DNA of 64,000 nt, taken from assembly GCF_003334385.1 (NCBI RefSeq), contig NZ_QOWN01000016.1. The stretch is one strand, 5' to 3'. How positions within the stretch are numbered: position 1 is the first letter of the stretch; every line of letters starts with the position of its first letter. The DNA is from Escherichia coli (GTDB lineage Bacteria > Pseudomonadota > Gammaproteobacteria > Enterobacterales > Enterobacteriaceae). Of this stretch, positions 3,279-29,636 are shown piece after piece. The position numbers and the translations under genes are program-made. A model generated the notes under the pieces. It saw only the letters and a list, made by a program, of their open reading frames with translations. It was not told the origin of the DNA and searched no databases.

Positions 3279-5246
3279 ATGGGTATTTTCTCCATTGCTA
3301 ACCAACATATTCGCTTTGCGGTAAAACTGGCGACCGCCATTGTACTGGCGCTGTTTGTTGGCTTTCACTTCCAGCTGGAAACGCCACGCTGGGCGGTACT
3401 GACAGCGGCGATTGTTGCCGCCGGTCCGGCCTTTGCTGCGGGAGGTGAACCGTATTCTGGCGCTATTCGCTATCGTGGCTTTTTGCGCATCATCGGCACA
3501 TTTATTGGCTGTATTGCCGGACTGGTGATCATCATTGCGATGATCCGCGCACCATTATTGATGATTCTGGTGTGCTGTATCTGGGCCGGTTTTTGTACCT
3601 GGATATCCTCGCTGGTACGAATAGAAAACTCGTATGCGTGGGGGCTGGCCGGTTATACCGCGCTGATCATTGTGATCACCATTCAGCCGGAACCATTGCT
3701 TACGCCGCAGTTTGCCGTCGAACGTTGTAGCGAGATCGTTATCGGTATTGTGTGTGCGATTATGGCGGATTTGCTCTTTTCTCCGCGATCGATCAAACAA
3801 GAAGTGGATCGAGAGCTGGAAAGTTTGCTGGTCGCGCAATATCAATTAATGCAACTCTGTATCAAGCATGGCGATGGTGAAGTTGTCGATAAAGCCTGGG
3901 GCGACCTGGTGCGACGCACCACGGCGCTACAAGGCATGCGCAGCAACCTGAATATGGAATCTTCCCGCTGGGCGCGGGCCAATCGACGTTTAAAAGCGAT
4001 CAATACGCTATCGCTGACGCTGATTACCCAATCCTGCGAAACTTATCTTATTCAGAATACGCGCCCGGAATTGATCACTGATACTTTCCGCGAATTTTTT
4101 GACACGCCGGTAGAAACCGCGCAGGACGTCCACAAGCAGCTCAAACGCCTGCGGAGAGTTATCGCCTGGACCGGGGAACGGGAAACGCCTGTCACCATTT
4201 ATAGCTGGGTCGCGGCGGCAACGCGTTATCAGCTTCTCAAGCGCGGCGTTATCAGTAACACAAAAATCAACGCCACCGAAGAAGAGATCCTGCAAGGCGA
4301 ACCGGAAGTAAAAGTAGAGTCAGCCGAACGTCATCATGCAATGGTTAACTTCTGGCGAACCACACTTTCCTGCATTCTGGGCACGCTTTTCTGGCTGTGG
4401 ACGGGCTGGACTTCCGGCAGTGGTGCAATGGTGATGATTGCGGTAGTGACGTCACTGGCAATGCGTTTGCCGAATCCACGCATGGTGGCGATCGACTTTA
4501 TCTACGGGACGCTGGCCGCGCTGCCGTTAGGGCTGCTCTACTTTTTGGTGATTATCCCTAATACCCAACAGAGCATGTTGCTGCTGTGCATTAGCCTGGC
4601 AGTGCTGGGATTCTTCCTCGGTATAGAAGTACAGAAACGGCGACTGGGCTCGATGGGGGCACTGGCCAGCACCATAAATATTATCGTGCTGGATAACCCG
4701 ATGACTTTCCATTTCAGTCAGTTTCTCGACAGCGCATTAGGGCAAATCGTCGGCTGTGTGCTCGCGTTCACCGTTATTTTGCTGGTGCGGGATAAATCGC
4801 GCGACAGGACCGGACGTGTACTGCTTAATCAGTTTGTTTCTGCCGCTGTTTCCGCGATGACTACCAATGTGGCACGTCGTAAAGAGAACCACCTCCCGGC
4901 ACTTTATCAGCAGCTGTTTTTGCTGATGAATAAGTTCCCAGGGGATTTGCCGAAATTTCGCCTGGCGCTGACGATGATTATCGCGCACCAGCGCCTGCGT
5001 GATGCACCGATCCCGGTTAACGAGGATTTATCGGCGTTTCACCGACAAATGCGCCGCACAGCAGACCATGTGATATCTGCCCGTAGCGATGATAAACGTC
5101 GTCGGTACTTTGGCCAGTTGCTGGAAGAACTGGAAATCTACCAGGAAAAGCTACGCATCTGGCAAGCGCCACCGCAGGTGACGGAACCGGTAAATCGGCT
5201 GGCGGGGATGCTCCATAAGTATCAACATGCGTTGACCGATAGTTAA
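3279..5246 (+). CDS. aaeB: p-Hydroxybenzoate efflux pump subunit AaeB
   Basis: 655 aa multi-pass membrane protein 5 bp downstream of aaeA; recognised as AaeB. Confidence 0.9.
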
Positions 5247-5929: not shown

Positions 5930-6293
5930 GATTTTTACCTCGACATAATCTTTTAGCTGGGCCTTTGTTTCGTGACCCATATCACAAAATCAAGTATACA
6001 CTAATTATTGAGCTAATTAATACCGCGCTAACTGTTTCAGTTGATACTAAGTGTTAAAAATGTGAATTTTAATAACAAAAAAGAATTAAAAATACGGTTA
6101 TTTATCGTTAATTCTAGTTTTTTCAATTAGATAATGAATTTTGCATAATGTGCTTTTTTTACCTTATGTATTCATTGTGTGAATGACATGTCGCAGTAAA
6201 ACGCACTATTCGTTAAATTAATCGCAGGGGAAAGCAGGGGGTTGAGAGGGATAAGCAACATTTTCCCCGCCGTCAGAAACGACGGGGCAGAGA

Positions 6294-9356: not shown

Positions 9357-10724
9357 TTAACGCATCAGCAGATAGATGCTTTCATTGCCGCGTACAATTT
9401 GCAGGGCGATGATGGCCGGTTTTGCCGCCAGCACTTTACGCATTTCAGCAATCGAGTTCACCCGATCGCGGTTGACGCCAATGATCACATCGTCTTTTTG
9501 CAAGCCAGCCTGAGCAGCTGGGCTTCCTTTGACAACTTCATCGATTTTAATACCTTTGCCGCCATCTTTTAGCTGACCATCGCTCAACGTTGCACCTTCC
9601 AGCGCTGGCGTGATCATTTCAGCGCTGGCCGACGAAGAGGTGCTGGTATCGAGCGTCACTTCTACTTCCAGTGGTTTGCCGTTACGCAGCAGGCCAAGCT
9701 TCACTTTCGTGCCCGGCTCGGTGGTCGCGATACGAGAGCGCAACTCAGCAAAGCTATTCAGCGGTTTGCCGTTGAGGCTGGTAATAATATCGCCCGCTTT
9801 GACGCCCGCTTTTGCCGAGCCAGAACCTGGCAACACTTCGCTGACAAACGCGCCACGCTGCACGTCAAGGTTGAAGGCTTTGGCGATATCGGCACTCATC
9901 TCGGTGCCTTTGATGCCTAACAAACCGCGTTTGATTTCACCAAAGTCGATAAGCTGCTGCGCCAGTGTTCGCGCCATATTACTGGGGATGGCAAATCCAA
10001 TCCCGACGCTCCCGCCGCCAGGCGCAAGGATTGCAGTGTTGATGCCAATTAACTCACCGTTAAGGTTTAATAGTGCACCGCCGGAGTTACCGCGGTTAAT
10101 GGAAGCATCTGTCTGGATAAAGTTTTCCAGACCTTCAAGATTCAACCCGCTGCGGCCTAATGCGGAAACAATGCCAGAGGTGGCGGTTTGCCCAAGGCCA
10201 AATGGGTTACCGACCGCTACGGCAAAATCACCGACGCGCAATTTATCGGAGTCGGCAATAGCGATTTGCGTTAATTTGCTCGGGTTTTGAATTTGTAACA
10301 GGGCGATATCGCTCTGGTCATCGCTACCAATCAGTTTTGCATCAAACTCGCGCCCATCATTGAGCTGAATACTGATTTTCTGTGCCTGATTAATCACATG
10401 GTTGTTGGTCAGCACATAGCCTTTACTGGCGTTGATGATGACACCGGAGCCTAAACCTTCGAAGGGTTGTGCAGGTTGATCCGGTAAATCATCACCAAAA
10501 AACTTTTTGAATTCTTCCGGGATTTTCTGTCCCTGACTGGCCGTTCCTTCCACCCGTACGCTCACCACTGCCGGAAGCACTTTTTCCAGCATTGGAGCCA
10601 GACTGGGGAGAGGGGCCTGATCGGCAACCTGGCCTGGAATCGACGCGACGGCCTGAAATGACGCCGAGAGAGTTAACCCGACACTTAACGCTAATGCACT
10701 CAACAGCTGGGTTTGTTTTTTCAT
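9357..10724 (-). CDS. degQ: Periplasmic serine endoprotease DegQ
   Basis: 455 aa from MKKQTQLLSALALS (signal peptide) with a protease domain and two PDZ domains; the track ORF is over-extended by 14 codons. Confidence 0.95.
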   Translation of the reverse strand: MKKQTQLLSALALSVGLTLSASFQAVASIPGQVADQAPLPSLAPMLEKVLPAVVSVRVEGTASQGQKIPEEFKKFFGDDLPDQPAQPFEGLGSGVIINASKGYVLTNNHVINQAQKISIQLNDGREFDAKLIGSDDQSDIALLQIQNPSKLTQIAIADSDKLRVGDFAVAVGNPFGLGQTATSGIVSALGRSGLNLEGLENFIQTDASINRGNSGGALLNLNGELIGINTAILAPGGGSVGIGFAIPSNMARTLAQQLIDFGEIKRGLLGIKGTEMSADIAKAFNLDVQRGAFVSEVLPGSGSAKAGVKAGDIITSLNGKPLNSFAELRSRIATTEPGTKVKLGLLRNGKPLEVEVTLDTSTSSSASAEMITPALEGATLSDGQLKDGGKGIKIDEVVKGSPAAQAGLQKDDVIIGVNRDRVNSIAEMRKVLAAKPAIIALQIVRGNESIYLLMR

Positions 10725-21120: not shown

Positions 21121-22453
<1,333 letters not shown>

Positions 22454-22472: not shown

Positions 22473-22497
22473 ATTCTGCAGACACTGTCTGCAGAAT
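22473..22497. repeat. Palindromic element, CAGAC-N3-GTCTG family, copy 1 (extragenic, between nanQ and yhcG)
   Basis: ATTCTGCAGAC-act-GTCTGCAGAAT with perfect 11 bp arms; lies in the 59 bp gap between the two convergent genes. Confidence 0.8.
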
Positions 22498-22512: not shown

Positions 22513-23640
22513 TTAACGGCGTCTATAGCCTTCCTCTAGCACCGCCTGTGTTCGAACGAGTTCATCTGCGAGTCGTTTCTCATCAGGTAGTTGCATCTTA
22601 TATTCGCTTGCCAGAACGGTGTTAGGCAAACCTGCCAGAGCATAATGCGCTTCTCCGGCTCCTTTCTCTGCACAGAGAACCAGACCGATGGGCGGATTTT
22701 CATCCGGTAGCGTCCAGTGCTCTTTGGCGTAGTTGAGATACATATTCATCTGTCCGGCATCGCTATAGCTGAATTTGCCCACTTTTAGATCGACGATTAG
22801 CAGGCAGCGTAAACGGCGGTGGAAAAACAGCAGATCGACACGAAACCAGTTGTCATCAATGCGTAACCTTCGCTGCCGACCAACAAAGGCAAAATCATCC
22901 CCAAGTTCCAGCATGAAATCCATCAGGTGGTTGATCAGCGCCTCCTCAAAATCGGATTCTGAATATTCATCTTTCAATTCCAGAAATTCGAGCACAAAGG
23001 GATCGCGTATCGCCTGTTGCGGAAGAATATGCGTCTCGGCAGGAGCGTGTTGTTGCAGCATGGCTGATTTGTCATGTGACAGTAGTGTCCGCTCATAAAA
23101 CTGGGTCGCAATTTGCCGCTCTAGCTGGCGAACAGACCAGCCACAGCGGAGCGTCTCTTTTTCATAAAAGCTGCGGGCGTCAGCGTTTTTAACGGAAAGT
23201 AAACGGACGTAGGTGGACCTGGGCAAGGGGAAAGATTTGGCAGACAGCGTCTGCCAAATCTTTGCCGATGGGAATTCTGCAGACGGTGTCTGCGGAATTC
23301 CCAATGGTGTTAATTCGCCAGACATTGTCTGGCGAATTTCAACATGTTGAAAAAAGAGGTAAAAAAGCCTCATTTGGCGTAAGTTTTTTGCAGAGAACCC
23401 ACGCTTATACCTTAGACATAAATCCTTTGATAGTCGCTTGATTAGCTGCGCACCATACGCAGCCCTGGCCTCGCCACCTTGTTCAAATTCGACAATTCGT
23501 CGGCCAATTTCCTGGTACGTCGCGGTCATTAACGCGTTAACGCTACGTACCGTTTCCGTCCGGGCGCTATCGACCAGATGAATAATACCGTCGTGGATTT
23601 GCTGGTAGCCTGCTGTGGTTCCTTCTGAGAGCGATTCCAT
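22513..23640 (-). CDS. yhcG: YhcG, DUF1016-type protein with a predicted PDDEXK nuclease-like C-terminal region; function unknown
   Basis: 375 aa ORF convergent with nanQ; recognised as YhcG; the centre carries three in-frame 39 bp palindromic repeats (23231-23338). Confidence 0.8.
   Translation of the reverse strand: MESLSEGTTAGYQQIHDGIIHLVDSARTETVRSVNALMTATYQEIGRRIVEFEQGGEARAAYGAQLIKRLSKDLCLRYKRGFSAKNLRQMRLFYLFFQHVEIRQTMSGELTPLGIPQTPSAEFPSAKIWQTLSAKSFPLPRSTYVRLLSVKNADARSFYEKETLRCGWSVRQLERQIATQFYERTLLSHDKSAMLQQHAPAETHILPQQAIRDPFVLEFLELKDEYSESDFEEALINHLMDFMLELGDDFAFVGRQRRLRIDDNWFRVDLLFFHRRLRCLLIVDLKVGKFSYSDAGQMNMYLNYAKEHWTLPDENPPIGLVLCAEKGAGEAHYALAGLPNTVLASEYKMQLPDEKRLADELVRTQAVLEEGYRRR
23231..23338. 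repeat. Three tandem palindromic elements of the same family (copies 2-4), 39 bp period, inside the yhcG reading frame
   Basis: AAAGATTTGGCAGAC-agc-GTCTGCCAAATCTTT (perfect 15 bp arms), GGGAATTCTGCAGAC-ggt-GTCTGCGGAATTCCC (one mismatch), AATTCGCCAGAC-att-GTCTGGCGAATT (perfect 12 bp arms); centres 39 bp apart; the minus strand translates as ...RQTMSGELTPLGIPQTPSAEFPSAKIWQTLSAKSFP... within YhcG. Confidence 0.85.
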
Positions 23641-23824: not shown

Positions 23825-24541
23825 TCACAAGTAGACTACGCTTATCACAGCTTTCCCATCAAGTTCGATTTTTTCTGAACCGCCTAAATCATTCGCGATA
23901 GATGCGCTCACCTGAAGCGGTATAATGGCGTTCGTTACAGGAGTTGGGGTTGTTTCACCTGGTTTTACAAAGGTGTAATAATAGCTTTGATCGACTGCAA
24001 GCGGATAAGCGGTGAGCGTTTGCCATGCTCTTTTTTGCCCTGTTATGACGGCATCTGCACCTGCTATTGATACAGCTAACGTCTGGCTACCATTGCTGGC
24101 ACTAATGTTGTTGCTATCAATTAACACGGCATAACTACCGATATTTTTATTATCTTTTGTTTTCCCTAAGCCGAATAAGCGCGTTGTCTGGCTAATATAA
24201 CCTCCGCCATTTAAGGTATATTTTACACCACTCTGACCCCCACTATCTTTTCCGGTGGTCATACTATCCATTCGTGTATCACGAGCGGTAATCGCAATGC
24301 TGGTAGCGGATTCGCAAGTTATAGTCATATTAATATTACGTGTTCCAATCTGTGTGTAGTGCTGCGTTGAAAGTCTATTGACTGAATGACTACCGAAGTT
24401 AACAACTCCGCCGTTGCTTAGTATTGGAGTACAAGCTGCAGCTTCCAGAGTCACCTTAACGTCAATTGATACTCTATCAGCGGCTTGCGCTGACATGGCA
24501 AAAAAGGCACTTCCGGCAATCAGTAATTTTACATTGTTCAT
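23825..24541 (-). CDS. yhcF: Secreted fimbrial-like protein YhcF (DUF1120 type)
   Basis: 238 aa with signal peptide MNNVKLLIAGSAFFAMSAQA; paralogous pattern to GltF (GxCTP...ITC); last gene of the chaperone-usher operon. Confidence 0.8.
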   Translation of the reverse strand: MNNVKLLIAGSAFFAMSAQAADRVSIDVKVTLEAAACTPILSNGGVVNFGSHSVNRLSTQHYTQIGTRNINMTITCESATSIAITARDTRMDSMTTGKDSGGQSGVKYTLNGGGYISQTTRLFGLGKTKDNKNIGSYAVLIDSNNISASNGSQTLAVSIAGADAVITGQKRAWQTLTAYPLAVDQSYYYTFVKPGETTPTPVTNAIIPLQVSASIANDLGGSEKIELDGKAVISVVYL

Positions 24542-25089
24542 TTTGCCTCCACCAGGACCGTCAGATTGCCTGTAATATCTGTCATGTCGGTTAGTTCCCC
24601 TTCATCCTTAAAAGCTGGAGCCATTGTCAGTGTGAGGCTAACGCTTTTACCGCTATCAATTACCACTTCTTGACCATTTTGCATAAACACCAGCCAATTA
24701 TTGGGGGAAGTACTAATTGATGCTGTTCCTGTGCTGCCCGGATTGTCATTTTTGCCACTGGCTAACGCCAGGTCGAGATTGTTACTACCTGAAAATGCAT
24801 CGCTGGCGATCAGATTTAATGAACCATTCGGGCCAAATCCAAATCCGTTGTTGGAAATATTAGCGGTATTCAACTGAACACGAATATGAGCGTCCTGATC
24901 GCATTGCATTACCAGCGTGATTGTTCTGTCTGCTAATTGTGTTGTTTTACCCCGGTCAACTTGGCGCATGGCAGCACTTCGTTTGCCATAGTCGATATTT
25001 TGTATGCTACTGGAGATATTACACTCTGCCTGAGCGGCCATGGCGAAGTTCAGCAGCAGGCATCCTGTTATTATCCGTTTCATTGGCAC
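24538..25089 (-). CDS. yhcE: Secreted fimbrial-like protein YhcE (DUF1120 type), apparently intact
   Basis: 183 aa with a signal peptide; start overlaps the yhcD stop by 10 nt. Confidence 0.75.
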   Translation of the reverse strand: MPMKRIITGCLLLNFAMAAQAECNISSSIQNIDYGKRSAAMRQVDRGKTTQLADRTITLVMQCDQDAHIRVQLNTANISNNGFGFGPNGSLNLIASDAFSGSNNLDLALASGKNDNPGSTGTASISTSPNNWLVFMQNGQEVVIDSGKSVSLTLTMAPAFKDEGELTDMTDITGNLTVLVEAK

Positions 25090-28327: not shown

Positions 28328-29092
28328 TTATAAATACTGAACGCTGATAGTGACGTTACCATCCAGTTTGATCGTTTCATCAGAACCAAGAATAGTATTG
28401 TCATTTACCGCAGCATCAATCAGTAACGGGAAGGTGACCGCTGTAATGGCAACAGGTGTCAGTTCCCCTGTTTTTGCAACAGAATAACCGCGCTCGATTG
28501 CTGAGCAACTTGTCAGCGAGCAGAATGCGCCATTAGATGAGGCTTTCCATGTGGGGGTCGCTGCTGACCAGTGGTCAGTTTGAATCAGGTCGACAGGAAT
28601 TTCACCTGTATCGTCCGCCGCGTGAATCCCACCATTAGACCTGTCAATACCAATGGATGCAGCGCCAATTTTTTGTCCATTAGGCGCAGAACCTAAACCA
28701 AAGGCGTTTTTCGTTCCCTTCATATCTACGAGAGTATCATAAGCTTTTTCAATATAGGATGTGTCGTTTAACGCTACAATGGTCGACTGACGGTTATCCT
28801 TGGAGGTTACAGCAATTAGCGTTGGTGCTGTGCAGGTTATATTTAATGTGCTGTTTTTGCGGCCCAGTTGAACCAGTTTATTACTTTTACCGGTCGGATT
28901 CAGCGCACTGTTATGATGTTTCCCATAGTCAACAATGCCGCCGCCCGTAACAACTGGGGTACATGCACCAGGGGTATACTCGCCGATGATAGTTAATTCT
29001 GTATCAGTTGAATCTGTTGCCATGGCACTGAATGCTGCAACAGAAAGTGCTGCACAAATAGCAGCTGTTGTGAGGTTCTTTTTGAAAAACAT
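28328..29092 (-). CDS. gltF: Secreted fimbrial-like protein GltF (DUF1120 type), probable first subunit of the chaperone-usher operon
   Basis: 254 aa with signal peptide MFFKKNLTTAAICAALSVAAFSAMA; paralogous to YhcF. Confidence 0.85.
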   Translation of the reverse strand: MFFKKNLTTAAICAALSVAAFSAMATDSTDTELTIIGEYTPGACTPVVTGGGIVDYGKHHNSALNPTGKSNKLVQLGRKNSTLNITCTAPTLIAVTSKDNRQSTIVALNDTSYIEKAYDTLVDMKGTKNAFGLGSAPNGQKIGAASIGIDRSNGGIHAADDTGEIPVDLIQTDHWSAATPTWKASSNGAFCSLTSCSAIERGYSVAKTGELTPVAITAVTFPLLIDAAVNDNTILGSDETIKLDGNVTISVQYL

Positions 29093-29611
29093 ATGAACAT
29101 ATCCTTAATAACAAATTTATTTTTTAAAATAAAAAGCTGAAGCAGTATATATATCTGTTTGTGAATGTAAATAAATAACTCGTTCAGAAATAGCCAACTT
29201 GCTGGGATGTATTTATTTAATGAATTTTATAGTTACGATCATGTGAATAATAAGGTGCTGGTGAGGTGGTTTGTGGTGATAATTATTCATTACATGAATG
29301 TTTGCGCTGAAAAATAGGAAAATATATAGATAATTAAGGATAATATATTGGTTTTTTATATTCATATTTTGTATATTAATATCGAGACAATTTACATGGA
29401 ATGAAAAGACTGAATAGCTTGCAGAATCGGTATTGTCAGAGGTGTTAACAAGTAATTGAGACGGATTGTAAATGAGAAATTGCTTGATGTGCTTCACTCA
29501 TCAGACTTGGTGAACAAAGCACAATTTATTGAAAATTATCCCTATTATAGGAAAGGTCAAACGCTCATGCCGCATTTGCCAGAAAACAACGCGCACTTCG
29601 TCAGTAATTTG

Positions 29612-29636
29612 ATTCGCCAGACACAGTCTGGCGAAT
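29612..29636. repeat. Palindromic element, CAGAC-N3-GTCTG family, copy 5 (extragenic, just downstream of gltD)
   Basis: ATTCGCCAGAC-aca-GTCTGGCGAAT with perfect 11 bp arms; arms identical to intragenic copy 4. Confidence 0.8.

Follow-up and report, generated by a model that had tools for sequence, protein, structure and literature searches.

The yhcG locus

The stretch of DNA analysed here, referred to as the window, comprises 64,000 nucleotides of Escherichia coli (contig NZ_QOWN01000016.1 of assembly GCF_003334385.1). It contains yhcG on the minus strand (22513..23640), a coding sequence for 375 amino acids which is supported by the list of open reading frames (ORFs), by Pfam and by the RefSeq annotation of identical DNA. 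There it is labelled yhcG, 'PDDEXK nuclease domain-containing protein'. The subject of this report is a palindromic DNA element which the gene carries in frame. Palindrome A (23312..23338; AATTCGCCAGACATTGTCTGGCGAATT) has 13 pairs and encodes the peptide IRQTMSGEL, palindrome B (23269..23303) has 15 pairs with one mismatch and encodes IPQTPSAEF, and palindrome C (23228..23266) has 17 pairs and encodes IWQTLSAKS. All three are 27-nt near-perfect palindromes with the core CAGAC-N3-GTCTG, spaced by 39 nt and covering codons ~101-137. They differ from each other at arm positions 6-9, where each is still self-complementary. Folded as RNA, the trio formed three hairpins of -67 kcal/mol compared to -26 in shuffled sequences (z = -12). 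Two further palindromes are non-coding. Palindrome D (22473..22497; ATTCTGCAGACACTGTCTGCAGAAT) has 12 pairs and lies 16 nt past the stop codon of yhcG, in the spacer towards nanQ. Palindrome E (29612..29636; ATTCGCCAGACACAGTCTGGCGAAT) has 11 pairs and lies 15 nt from the stop codon of gltD, where the low-GC block gltF-yhcADEF-yhcG ends on that side. D and E bracket this entire 7.1-kb block. The core CAGACNNNGTCTG occurs five times in the window, against an expectation of 0.02.

The neighbours of yhcG are as the first-pass annotation of this DNA had described them, i.e. the gene converges with the nan operon and has a fimbrial operon alongside. nanQ (21989..22453, plus strand), the final gene of nanATEKQ, is 59 nt away. 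On the other side yhcG follows yhcF on the same strand at a distance of 184 nt. Further upstream are yhcE, yhcD (usher), yhcA (chaperone), gltF and then gltD and gltB. The G+C content is 0.43-0.50 in yhcG and the fimbrial block and 0.55-0.61 in the nan and glt genes.

An in-frame palindrome is a trait of the family

YhcG belongs to the DUF1016 family. We surveyed 80 family loci from more than 12 phyla, including Proteobacteria, Acidobacteria, Bacteroidota, Firmicutes, Cyanobacteria, Planctomycetota, Verrucomicrobiota and four archaeal lineages. The loci were retrieved solely via two peptides of the nuclease domain, and the sample is therefore unbiased with respect to the DNA of the linker. A palindrome was scored as present when at least 9 pairs, one mismatch allowed, were found within an interval of 250 nt located some 300 nt from the start of the ORF; 78 genes had an N-terminus and could be assessed. 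A palindrome was present in 65 of these 78, and 53 had one of at least 11 pairs. At the latter threshold the density was 3.18 per kb; in the flanks, of which 954 kb were covered, it was 0.061 per kb, so that the enrichment is 52-fold. Of 80 palindromes, 78 had their centre nucleotide at the first position of a codon.

The family consensus of about 27 bp is AATTnnnCAGACA[C/G]TGTCTGnnnAATT, also given as caaATTtncCAGACA[C/G]TGTCTGgnaAATt. Arms and core vary between lineages yet stay symmetric, e.g. CGCGACACTGTCGCG, GCTACACAGTGTGTAGC, GTCACGCATTGCGTGAT and GCGAAATCGTCGATTTCGC. Arm positions 2-8 were 93-99% Watson-Crick paired, and at positions 6-9 several pair types were used, up to four per position. 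Paired cells amounted to 92.5%, against 69.6% in shuffles and 21-42% after sliding, and doubly changed cells numbered 177 versus 54 in shuffles; these pair counts are partly circular as the segments were picked for symmetry, and the unbiased figures are the presence in 65 of 78 genes and the 52-fold enrichment. At the protein level, diverse homologues have one to three copies of the peptide I-x-Q-T-x-S-x'-[EKQ]-[FL] in a linker of variable length. The residue pairs at x and x' are exactly those which a DNA palindrome encodes. Loci fetched by exact protein identity also contained palindromes, one with an extra copy just past the stop codon.

Two or three DUF1016 paralogues in tandem were seen in Altiarchaeales (L069), Woesearchaeota (L078), Pseudoalteromonas (L104) and Enterocloster (L103). 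In L069, L078 and L104 the palindrome sequence differs between the tandem paralogues, which we count in favour of specific recognition of each palindrome by its own gene product (see below).

A search of Rfam 15 gave no family match to the element; what it returned, for a miRNA model, was below threshold and due to chance. The literature searched on yhcG, DUF1016, COG4804, PF06250 and intragenic palindromes contained no account of such an in-frame element, and the first-pass annotation had not mentioned it either. Thus, it is the in-frame palindrome which appears to be the new result; the gene, the family, the fold and the label of a candidate defence system were already known.

The constraint acts on the nucleic acid

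Codon usage was determined for 69 Q-T-x-S motifs from 50 genes with 29-67% G+C and compared to the rest of the same genes. Serine was encoded by TCT in 96% of the motifs and in 17% of cases elsewhere. The respective figures were 81% and 27% for ACA as the threonine codon, and 87% and 49% for CAG as the glutamine codon. The same consensus was found in non-coding copies, namely the two extragenic ones of E. coli, the copy at the empty nanQ-gltD site described below and intergenic copies in phages. Because the codons are fixed and the consensus recurs in non-coding DNA, the constraint acts on the nucleic acid and the protein motif is a by-product. A pure protein motif was ruled out on these grounds and by the DNA-type covariation of the arms.

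Is the element read as DNA or as RNA? Among the arm mismatches sense-strand G:T (19) was not in excess over A:C (32), i.e. no preference for G-U wobble pairs was apparent. In 55 of 80 palindromes the symmetry runs through the centre (loop size 1), where the loop of a hairpin would be unconstrained. Because of the missing G-U excess and the central symmetry we lean towards an element that is read at the DNA level, be it as a duplex site of a dimer, as a cruciform or as a hairpin on either strand; these data are not decisive. A sense-strand RNA hairpin with wobble pairs is weakened by the mismatch counts, not excluded.

Copies outside the gene

Cognate copies outside the ORF were rare, at about 3 of 60 assessable loci. 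This ruled out a general layout in which the gene is flanked by sites. In E. coli the palindrome is present at one to four places per genome, all of them at the yhcG locus among the matches listed, which ruled out a dispersed repeat of the repetitive extragenic palindrome (REP) type.

Viral contigs were scanned for AATTNNNCAGACNNNGTCTGNNNAATT. Of the 25 loci obtained, 16 were inside DUF1016 genes at the linker; the others were intergenic or at gene starts. Two whole viral contigs, L029 and L030, have palindromes and no DUF1016 gene. In L029 two overlapping copies (9937-9987) are situated just upstream of the ribosome-binding site (RBS) of a large serine recombinase gene, and in L030 palindromes are found at the start of the portal gene (3777-3809). 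Tandem pairs of palindromes lie upstream of or flank a MazF-like two-gene module in L026, L028 and L013. In L026 a 99-nt direct repeat with palindromes (4704-4802 and 6026-6124) is present on both sides of the MazF-like toxin-antitoxin operon.

Two arrangements may concern the regulation of DUF1016 genes. The DUF1016 gene of L028 has no copy in the linker, and two palindromes are located upstream of its operon (10566-10624), a point in favour of an operator function. In two loci from Clostridia, L092 and L103, the DUF1016 gene is preceded by a related palindrome, which is situated downstream of a TATGATAT -10 box and upstream of the RBS; both loci have the copy in the gene as well. By its sequence context this upstream palindrome is in the classic position of a putative operator.

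yhcG in the E. coli population

Next to the family-wide survey, 5,426 complete E. coli genomes were compared. The arrangement of the window, which is that of K-12 with the fimbrial block and palindrome E, was present in 1,290 genomes. Another 3,140 have gltD immediately next to the upstream sequence of yhcG; likewise, yhcG adjoins gltD in Salmonella. A further 946 genomes have no yhcG. There nanQ and gltD are directly adjacent and a single 15-pair palindrome lies between them. Over 27 nt this palindrome is identical to the intragenic copy A of strain APEC O78, and (L111, 6078-6110) it keeps the same 13-nt junction to gltD. The comparison of the block flanked by D and E with the empty site gives the impression that the block was deleted, or inserted, by way of the palindromes.

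In 723 of the 3,140 genomes yhcG is truncated 1-2 nt from the outer edge of palindrome C. In the truncated allele of E. coli PBS4 (L112, 5057-5630) about 470 nt of foreign DNA replace the nuclease half of the gene together with palindrome D. A 101-amino-acid ORF annotated as 'transposase' beside the truncated yhcG matched no Pfam or NCBIfam family. Alleles encode 349, 370, 375 or 382 amino acids, and the indels are exactly at the repeats. Two allele classes exist which are 97-100% identical outside a patch of about 240 nt, in which the identity is 38-80%. When the window was compared with L117 (E. coli DETEC-P649) the divergent patch corresponded to 23170-23410; it spans the palindromes and the helix of residues 84-96. 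In the second class the patch is similar to its counterpart in Pseudocitrobacter, which suggests that a module consisting of the palindromes plus the adjacent helix was exchanged. The two allele classes, too, are counted in favour of specific recognition.

These data demonstrated that yhcG is dispensable, often lost and rearranged preferentially at the palindromes, where the breakpoints of the E. coli rearrangements fall. The gene had been placed at the boundary of an accessory block in the first-pass annotation. This placement has to be refined since yhcG, absent from 946 genomes, is itself accessory.

Domains, active site and predicted fold of YhcG

Pfam assigned DUF1016_N to residues 19-184 (1.3e-36) and the PDDEXK domain YhcG_C to residues 208-360 (1.6e-56). 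This bears out the earlier assignment to an uncharacterised family with a PDDEXK nuclease domain. The helical N-terminal domain (23089..23586, minus strand) is split in two by the linker. The PD-(D/E)XK nuclease domain (22561..23019, minus strand) contains E245, D269, D284-L-K286 and Q297. In alignments of enterobacterial orthologues and of members with 35-58% identity E245 and D269 were invariant, position 284 was D or E, and K286 and Q297 were near-invariant. The motif E...D...(D/E)xK had been predicted for the family in 2005 (Kosinski et al. 2005, PMC1189080). By these comparisons the predicted active site is shown to be intact and the domain architecture is established. Loss of the catalytic residues, proposed earlier as evidence that would speak against a role in defence or DNA processing, was not seen in the alignments.

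An AlphaFold2 model of YhcG (predicted local distance difference test score, pLDDT, 82) has long helices at residues 6-96, a disordered segment at 103-125 (pLDDT <50), helices at 125-197 and an alpha/beta nuclease core at 228-346. Palindromes A-C code for exactly the disordered linker segment which splits the N-terminal module. The nuclease fold was closest to NucS and is related to Hjc and the Holliday-junction resolvases, at a sequence identity of 15-16%. When the N-terminal domain was used alone, the top structural matches were the DNA-binding domains of ParB, Spo0J, Noc and KorB. In the model, then, the N-terminal module weakly resembles a palindrome-binding helix-turn-helix of the ParB/KorB type; this is a lead, not a finding. 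A sequence search of the PDB with YhcG returned chance matches only, i.e. by sequence no relative has been solved as a structure, and NCBIfam has no model for YhcG. In PHROGs the family is held as a phage family of unknown function. It comprises 21,241 representative clusters at E <=0.001 and 9,494 at <=1e-10, and is spread over phages, conjugative elements and restriction-modification (RM) operons as well as bacterial and archaeal chromosomes.

The window allele has Gln43 (codon 23512-23514) and Arg141 (codon 23218-23220) at positions where most relatives have tryptophan (motifs YW-IG and LSWSHY). The commonest E. coli YhcG protein cluster has W43 but R141.

Gene neighbourhoods and the question of defence

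In PADLOC-DB, YhcG matches the candidate defence system PDC-S02 (PDLC04807, 2.8e-131, residues 9-370). One PDC-S02 representative from a cold seep did not protect E. coli B against T4, T5 or T7 (bioRxiv 10.1101/2024.09.26.614923). In a study of P. aeruginosa the only correlation displayed by PDC-S02 was a positive one with prophage number. DUF1016 genes were reported to be enriched 17-fold beside the target genes of programmed inversions and to be found between Type I RM genes; they are also enriched next to RM and bacteriophage exclusion (BREX) genes (PMC9881135). DUF1016 is among the cargo of Tn7-like transposons (PMC8649781), and homologues also ride on Rickettsia conjugative elements. For E. 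coli, a proteomic and genetic atlas linked YhcG with HsdMRS, McrBC and integrases, and a yhcG deletion was reported to be synthetically lethal with hypomorphs of dnaB, dnaN and parE (PMC2672614).

In our survey, which combined BLAST clustering with PADLOC annotation, 13 of 80 loci had the DUF1016 gene inside a Type I or Type III RM operon, in the same orientation and mostly directly next to an RM gene. When only loci with 3 kb or more on each side were counted, the association was present in 8 of 44. The other BLAST clusters of neighbouring genes in the 80 loci were small, no partner besides RM genes was recurrent and contexts were heterogeneous. At five loci (L094, L097, L068, L080, L105) DUF1016 is situated on the same strand between or beside mod and res of a Type III RM system, an association less noted in the literature than that with Type I.

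The surroundings of yhcG in the window are of another kind, with the nan operon on one side and, on the other, fimbrial genes of the chaperone-usher type followed by gltBD. Genes for a methyltransferase, an ATPase or any other defence function are absent next to yhcG, and a cognate methyltransferase is encoded neither in the block nor in its flanks; the earlier remark that no partner gene is visible here was thus correct. The co-occurrence with RM genes, for which a survey of neighbourhoods had been proposed, exists in a minority of the family, whereas the E. coli locus is positioned between housekeeping operons and is often lost. Similarly, the suggestion of a defence candidate has a basis in the PDC-S02 entry and in the 13 RM-associated loci, yet it is neither new nor established, and the representative assayed against T4, T5 and T7 was negative. 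A defence role of YhcG remains unproven and the protein a candidate only. Such a role is compatible with the explanations by mobility, by RNA structure and by a neutral palindrome in a plain defence nuclease which are discussed below.

When the region was scanned for consensus promoters and terminators, its minus strand gave none. The earlier description of yhcG as monocistronic thus gains no support from the sequence, and palindrome D is not a canonical intrinsic terminator. Transcript mapping indicated that yhcG is expressed and that a divergent RNA, G0-10703, overlaps its 5' end (PMC7967276). At the far end of the block, gltF (28328-29092) is annotated as a DUF1120 protein, as is yhcF, and it is in the part of lowest G+C content (0.31-0.39; 28328-29092 and 29000-29500). 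Because of this annotation and position gltF looks like a part of the fimbrial cluster and probably does not belong to the glutamate synthase operon. An intact yhcE-type ORF of 183 amino acids (24538-25089) lies between yhcD and yhcF; in MG1655 yhcE is interrupted by IS5, and the window is therefore probably not DNA of MG1655 itself.

What the palindrome may be for

What reads the palindrome? Tentatively, we infer that it is the putative cognate DNA site of YhcG itself, that it is read by the N-terminal domain and that it serves autoregulation; judged from the sequences, this is a real possibility which falls somewhat short of even. The product of yhcG would then be a DNA enzyme with two modules, a helical N-terminal module and a PD-(D/E)XK endonuclease of the NucS/Hjc type. 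A dimer would bind the palindrome as a duplex or as an extruded hairpin or cruciform. Whichever promoter reads the gene, the site in the ORF could throttle its expression by a roadblock or by looping. Such self-throttling would suit the gene of a potentially toxic nuclease which moves between operons, phages and conjugative elements, and embedding the site in the coding sequence would keep site and recognition domain genetically linked. The wider proposition, possible though doubtful, is that the family consists of self-contained modules of a protein plus its site. Each gene would carry in frame the palindrome which its product recognises, and specificity and target would be inherited, exchanged and diversified as one unit. 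This unit would autoregulate the nuclease and set the sites of cutting or recombination, including the gains, losses and allele swaps between nanQ and gltD.

Four points weigh against recognition by YhcG. With external copies in only about 3 of 60 loci, a loop between two operators cannot be general. Palindromes also occur where DUF1016 or yhcG is absent (L029, L030 and the 946 E. coli genomes), and they may have another reader. In the lineage of the window allele the replacement of tryptophan by Gln43 and Arg141 may reflect functional decay. Finally, the differences in sequence between A, B and C fit intrastrand pairing or mutational correction of quasipalindromes better than the reading of a duplex by a single protein.

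The breakpoints in E. coli may also be taken to mean that the palindromes are sites of recombination or mobility. The gene would be a cassette and YhcG a structure-specific nuclease, loosely like integron attC sites or like REP with the REP-associated tyrosine transposases (RAYTs). D and E flank the 7.1-kb block, genomes lacking it keep exactly one nanQ-gltD palindrome, which is identical to copy A of another strain, and in 723 genomes yhcG is cut 1-2 nt from the edge of palindrome C, beside the foreign 'transposase' segment. The allele indels (349, 370, 375 and 382 amino acids) exactly at the repeats and the divergent patch centred on the palindromes conform to this, as do homologues inserted between the genes of RM operons or residing on phages and conjugative elements, the palindromes beside the large serine recombinase gene of L029 and a nuclease fold related to Holliday-junction resolvases. 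Yet flanking copies are exceptional (about 3 of 60 loci). Where yhcG stands alone between nanQ and gltD, which is the common situation in E. coli, the gltD side is free of palindromes, and yhcG beside gltD in Salmonella suggests vertical descent instead of repeated insertion. With one to four copies per E. coli genome nothing is dispersing. Moreover, short palindromes are fragile sites and breakpoints there need no dedicated enzyme. On balance we consider mobility unlikely as the function of the element. An action at the level of RNA, by mRNA hairpins which tune stability or translation or which constitute a built-in antitoxin as in type III toxin-antitoxin systems, would agree with the three stable hairpins (-67 versus -26 kcal/mol, z = -12), the covariation of the arms, tandem copies at a fixed period of 39 nt, copies in the position of 5'- or 3'-untranslated regions and those which precede a MazF-like toxin-antitoxin operon on phage contigs. 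It is hard to reconcile with the absence of a sense-strand G-U bias (G:T 19, A:C 32), with symmetry through the centre at loop size 1 in 55 of 80 palindromes, with the lack of an Rfam family match and with a nuclease which has the fold of a DNA enzyme and is unrelated to ToxN or AbiQ; we regard it as quite improbable.

In line with the first-pass annotation, which had raised a defence role as speculative, YhcG may be a plain nuclease that acts alone in defence or abortive infection; the palindrome would then be a tolerated, functionless and self-perpetuating quasipalindrome in the linker. The candidate label PDC-S02, DUF1016 near RM and BREX genes (PMC9881135) and in Tn7-like cargo (PMC8649781), and the patchy presence and frequent loss in E. 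coli are what one would expect. The 13 of 80 loci in Type I or III RM operons recall latent nucleases of the PrrC type, and the peptide encoded by the palindrome is disordered. Template-switch correction can keep palindromes perfect, which counts for a mere passenger. Conversely, one representative afforded no protection from T4, T5 or T7 and the E. coli locus has no defence context. An unselected palindrome is not expected to hold its position and frame in 83% of genes which have diverged to 35% identity in bacteria and archaea alike, and the consensus is also kept in non-coding copies. This combination, too, has a decidedly low probability in our estimate. Least probable of all we consider a housekeeping nuclease which resolves intermediates of replication or recombination such as hairpins and cruciforms. 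The reported synthetic lethality with dnaB, dnaN and parE hypomorphs (PMC2672614) and the fold closest to NucS and related to Hjc are in its favour; absence of yhcG from 946 and its truncation in 723 of 5,426 E. coli genomes as well as a sporadic distribution across prokaryotes, often on mobile elements, are difficult to accommodate.

YhcG has been an orphan since the nuclease prediction of 2005, and PADLOC routinely counts the family as a 'defence system' without evidence. The conserved element in the ORF provides a first concrete and cheap handle, i.e. a defined substrate or operator of 27 bp. If YhcG does read its own palindrome, the DNA-binding specificity would be linked to its target in an unusual way, which would explain the behaviour of the gene as a portable single-gene cassette. 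Annotators are warned that the conserved peptide I-x-Q-T-x-S reflects a symmetry of the DNA and should not be taken for a protein motif. In E. coli genomes the palindromes mark the nanQ-gltD interval as a hotspot where DNA is gained or lost and alleles are replaced.

Comparison with known systems

At the protein level the window gene does not differ from the YhcG/DUF1016 family (PF17761 and PF06250, COG4804); it is the founding member and has both domains. PDC-S02 is matched over the full length and shares the occurrence of some homologues in RM operons; it is itself a candidate only, and the E. coli locus is no defence island. With NucS/EndoMS and archaeal Hjc the identity is 15-16%. The N-terminal domain of YhcG is unrelated to these, and neither binding of proliferating cell nuclear antigen (PCNA) nor a role in mismatch processing is implied. 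PrrC and RloC are latent nucleases embedded in Type I RM operons. The 13 of 80 homologues co-oriented among RM genes and the link of E. coli YhcG with HsdMRS and McrBC (PMC2672614) are similar; fold and presumed substrate differ, and E. coli yhcG is not beside hsd genes. From Type II and IIS RM systems the yhcG locus is set apart by the lack of a cognate methyltransferase beside the nuclease. In type III toxin-antitoxin systems (ToxIN) the repeats are upstream of a toxin with the ToxN/AbiQ fold, whereas those of yhcG are in the ORF of a PD-(D/E)XK protein and bear no G-U signature.

REP/RAYT systems and integron attC sites, too, are built on short palindromes which form structures, combine a conserved core with stems that covary and are linked to a single enzyme gene. 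They resemble the E. coli yhcG palindromes further in that the latter mark the boundaries of rearrangements. They differ in that the yhcG copies are few and inside the ORF, and the enzyme is of the PD-(D/E)XK type, not an HUH (IS200/IS605-type) enzyme or a tyrosine recombinase. If YhcG recognises it, the 27-bp palindrome at one to four places per E. coli genome would amount to a long, rare site such as homing endonucleases have; unlike the interrupted targets of homing endonucleases the candidate site is intact and translated, and the yhcG ORF is continuous. ParB, Spo0J, Noc and KorB bind palindromic parS or operator sites as dimers, and the palindromic site of yhcG likewise travels with the gene. 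I-TevI represses its own gene as a site-specific nuclease, and lac O2 is an intragenic auxiliary operator. The logic proposed for yhcG would be alike, with a nuclease that limits its own synthesis by binding to a target-like site and with an operator inside a coding region. Neither I-TevI nor lac O2, however, involves a translated palindrome which is kept throughout a protein family, and yhcG has neither intron nor intein.

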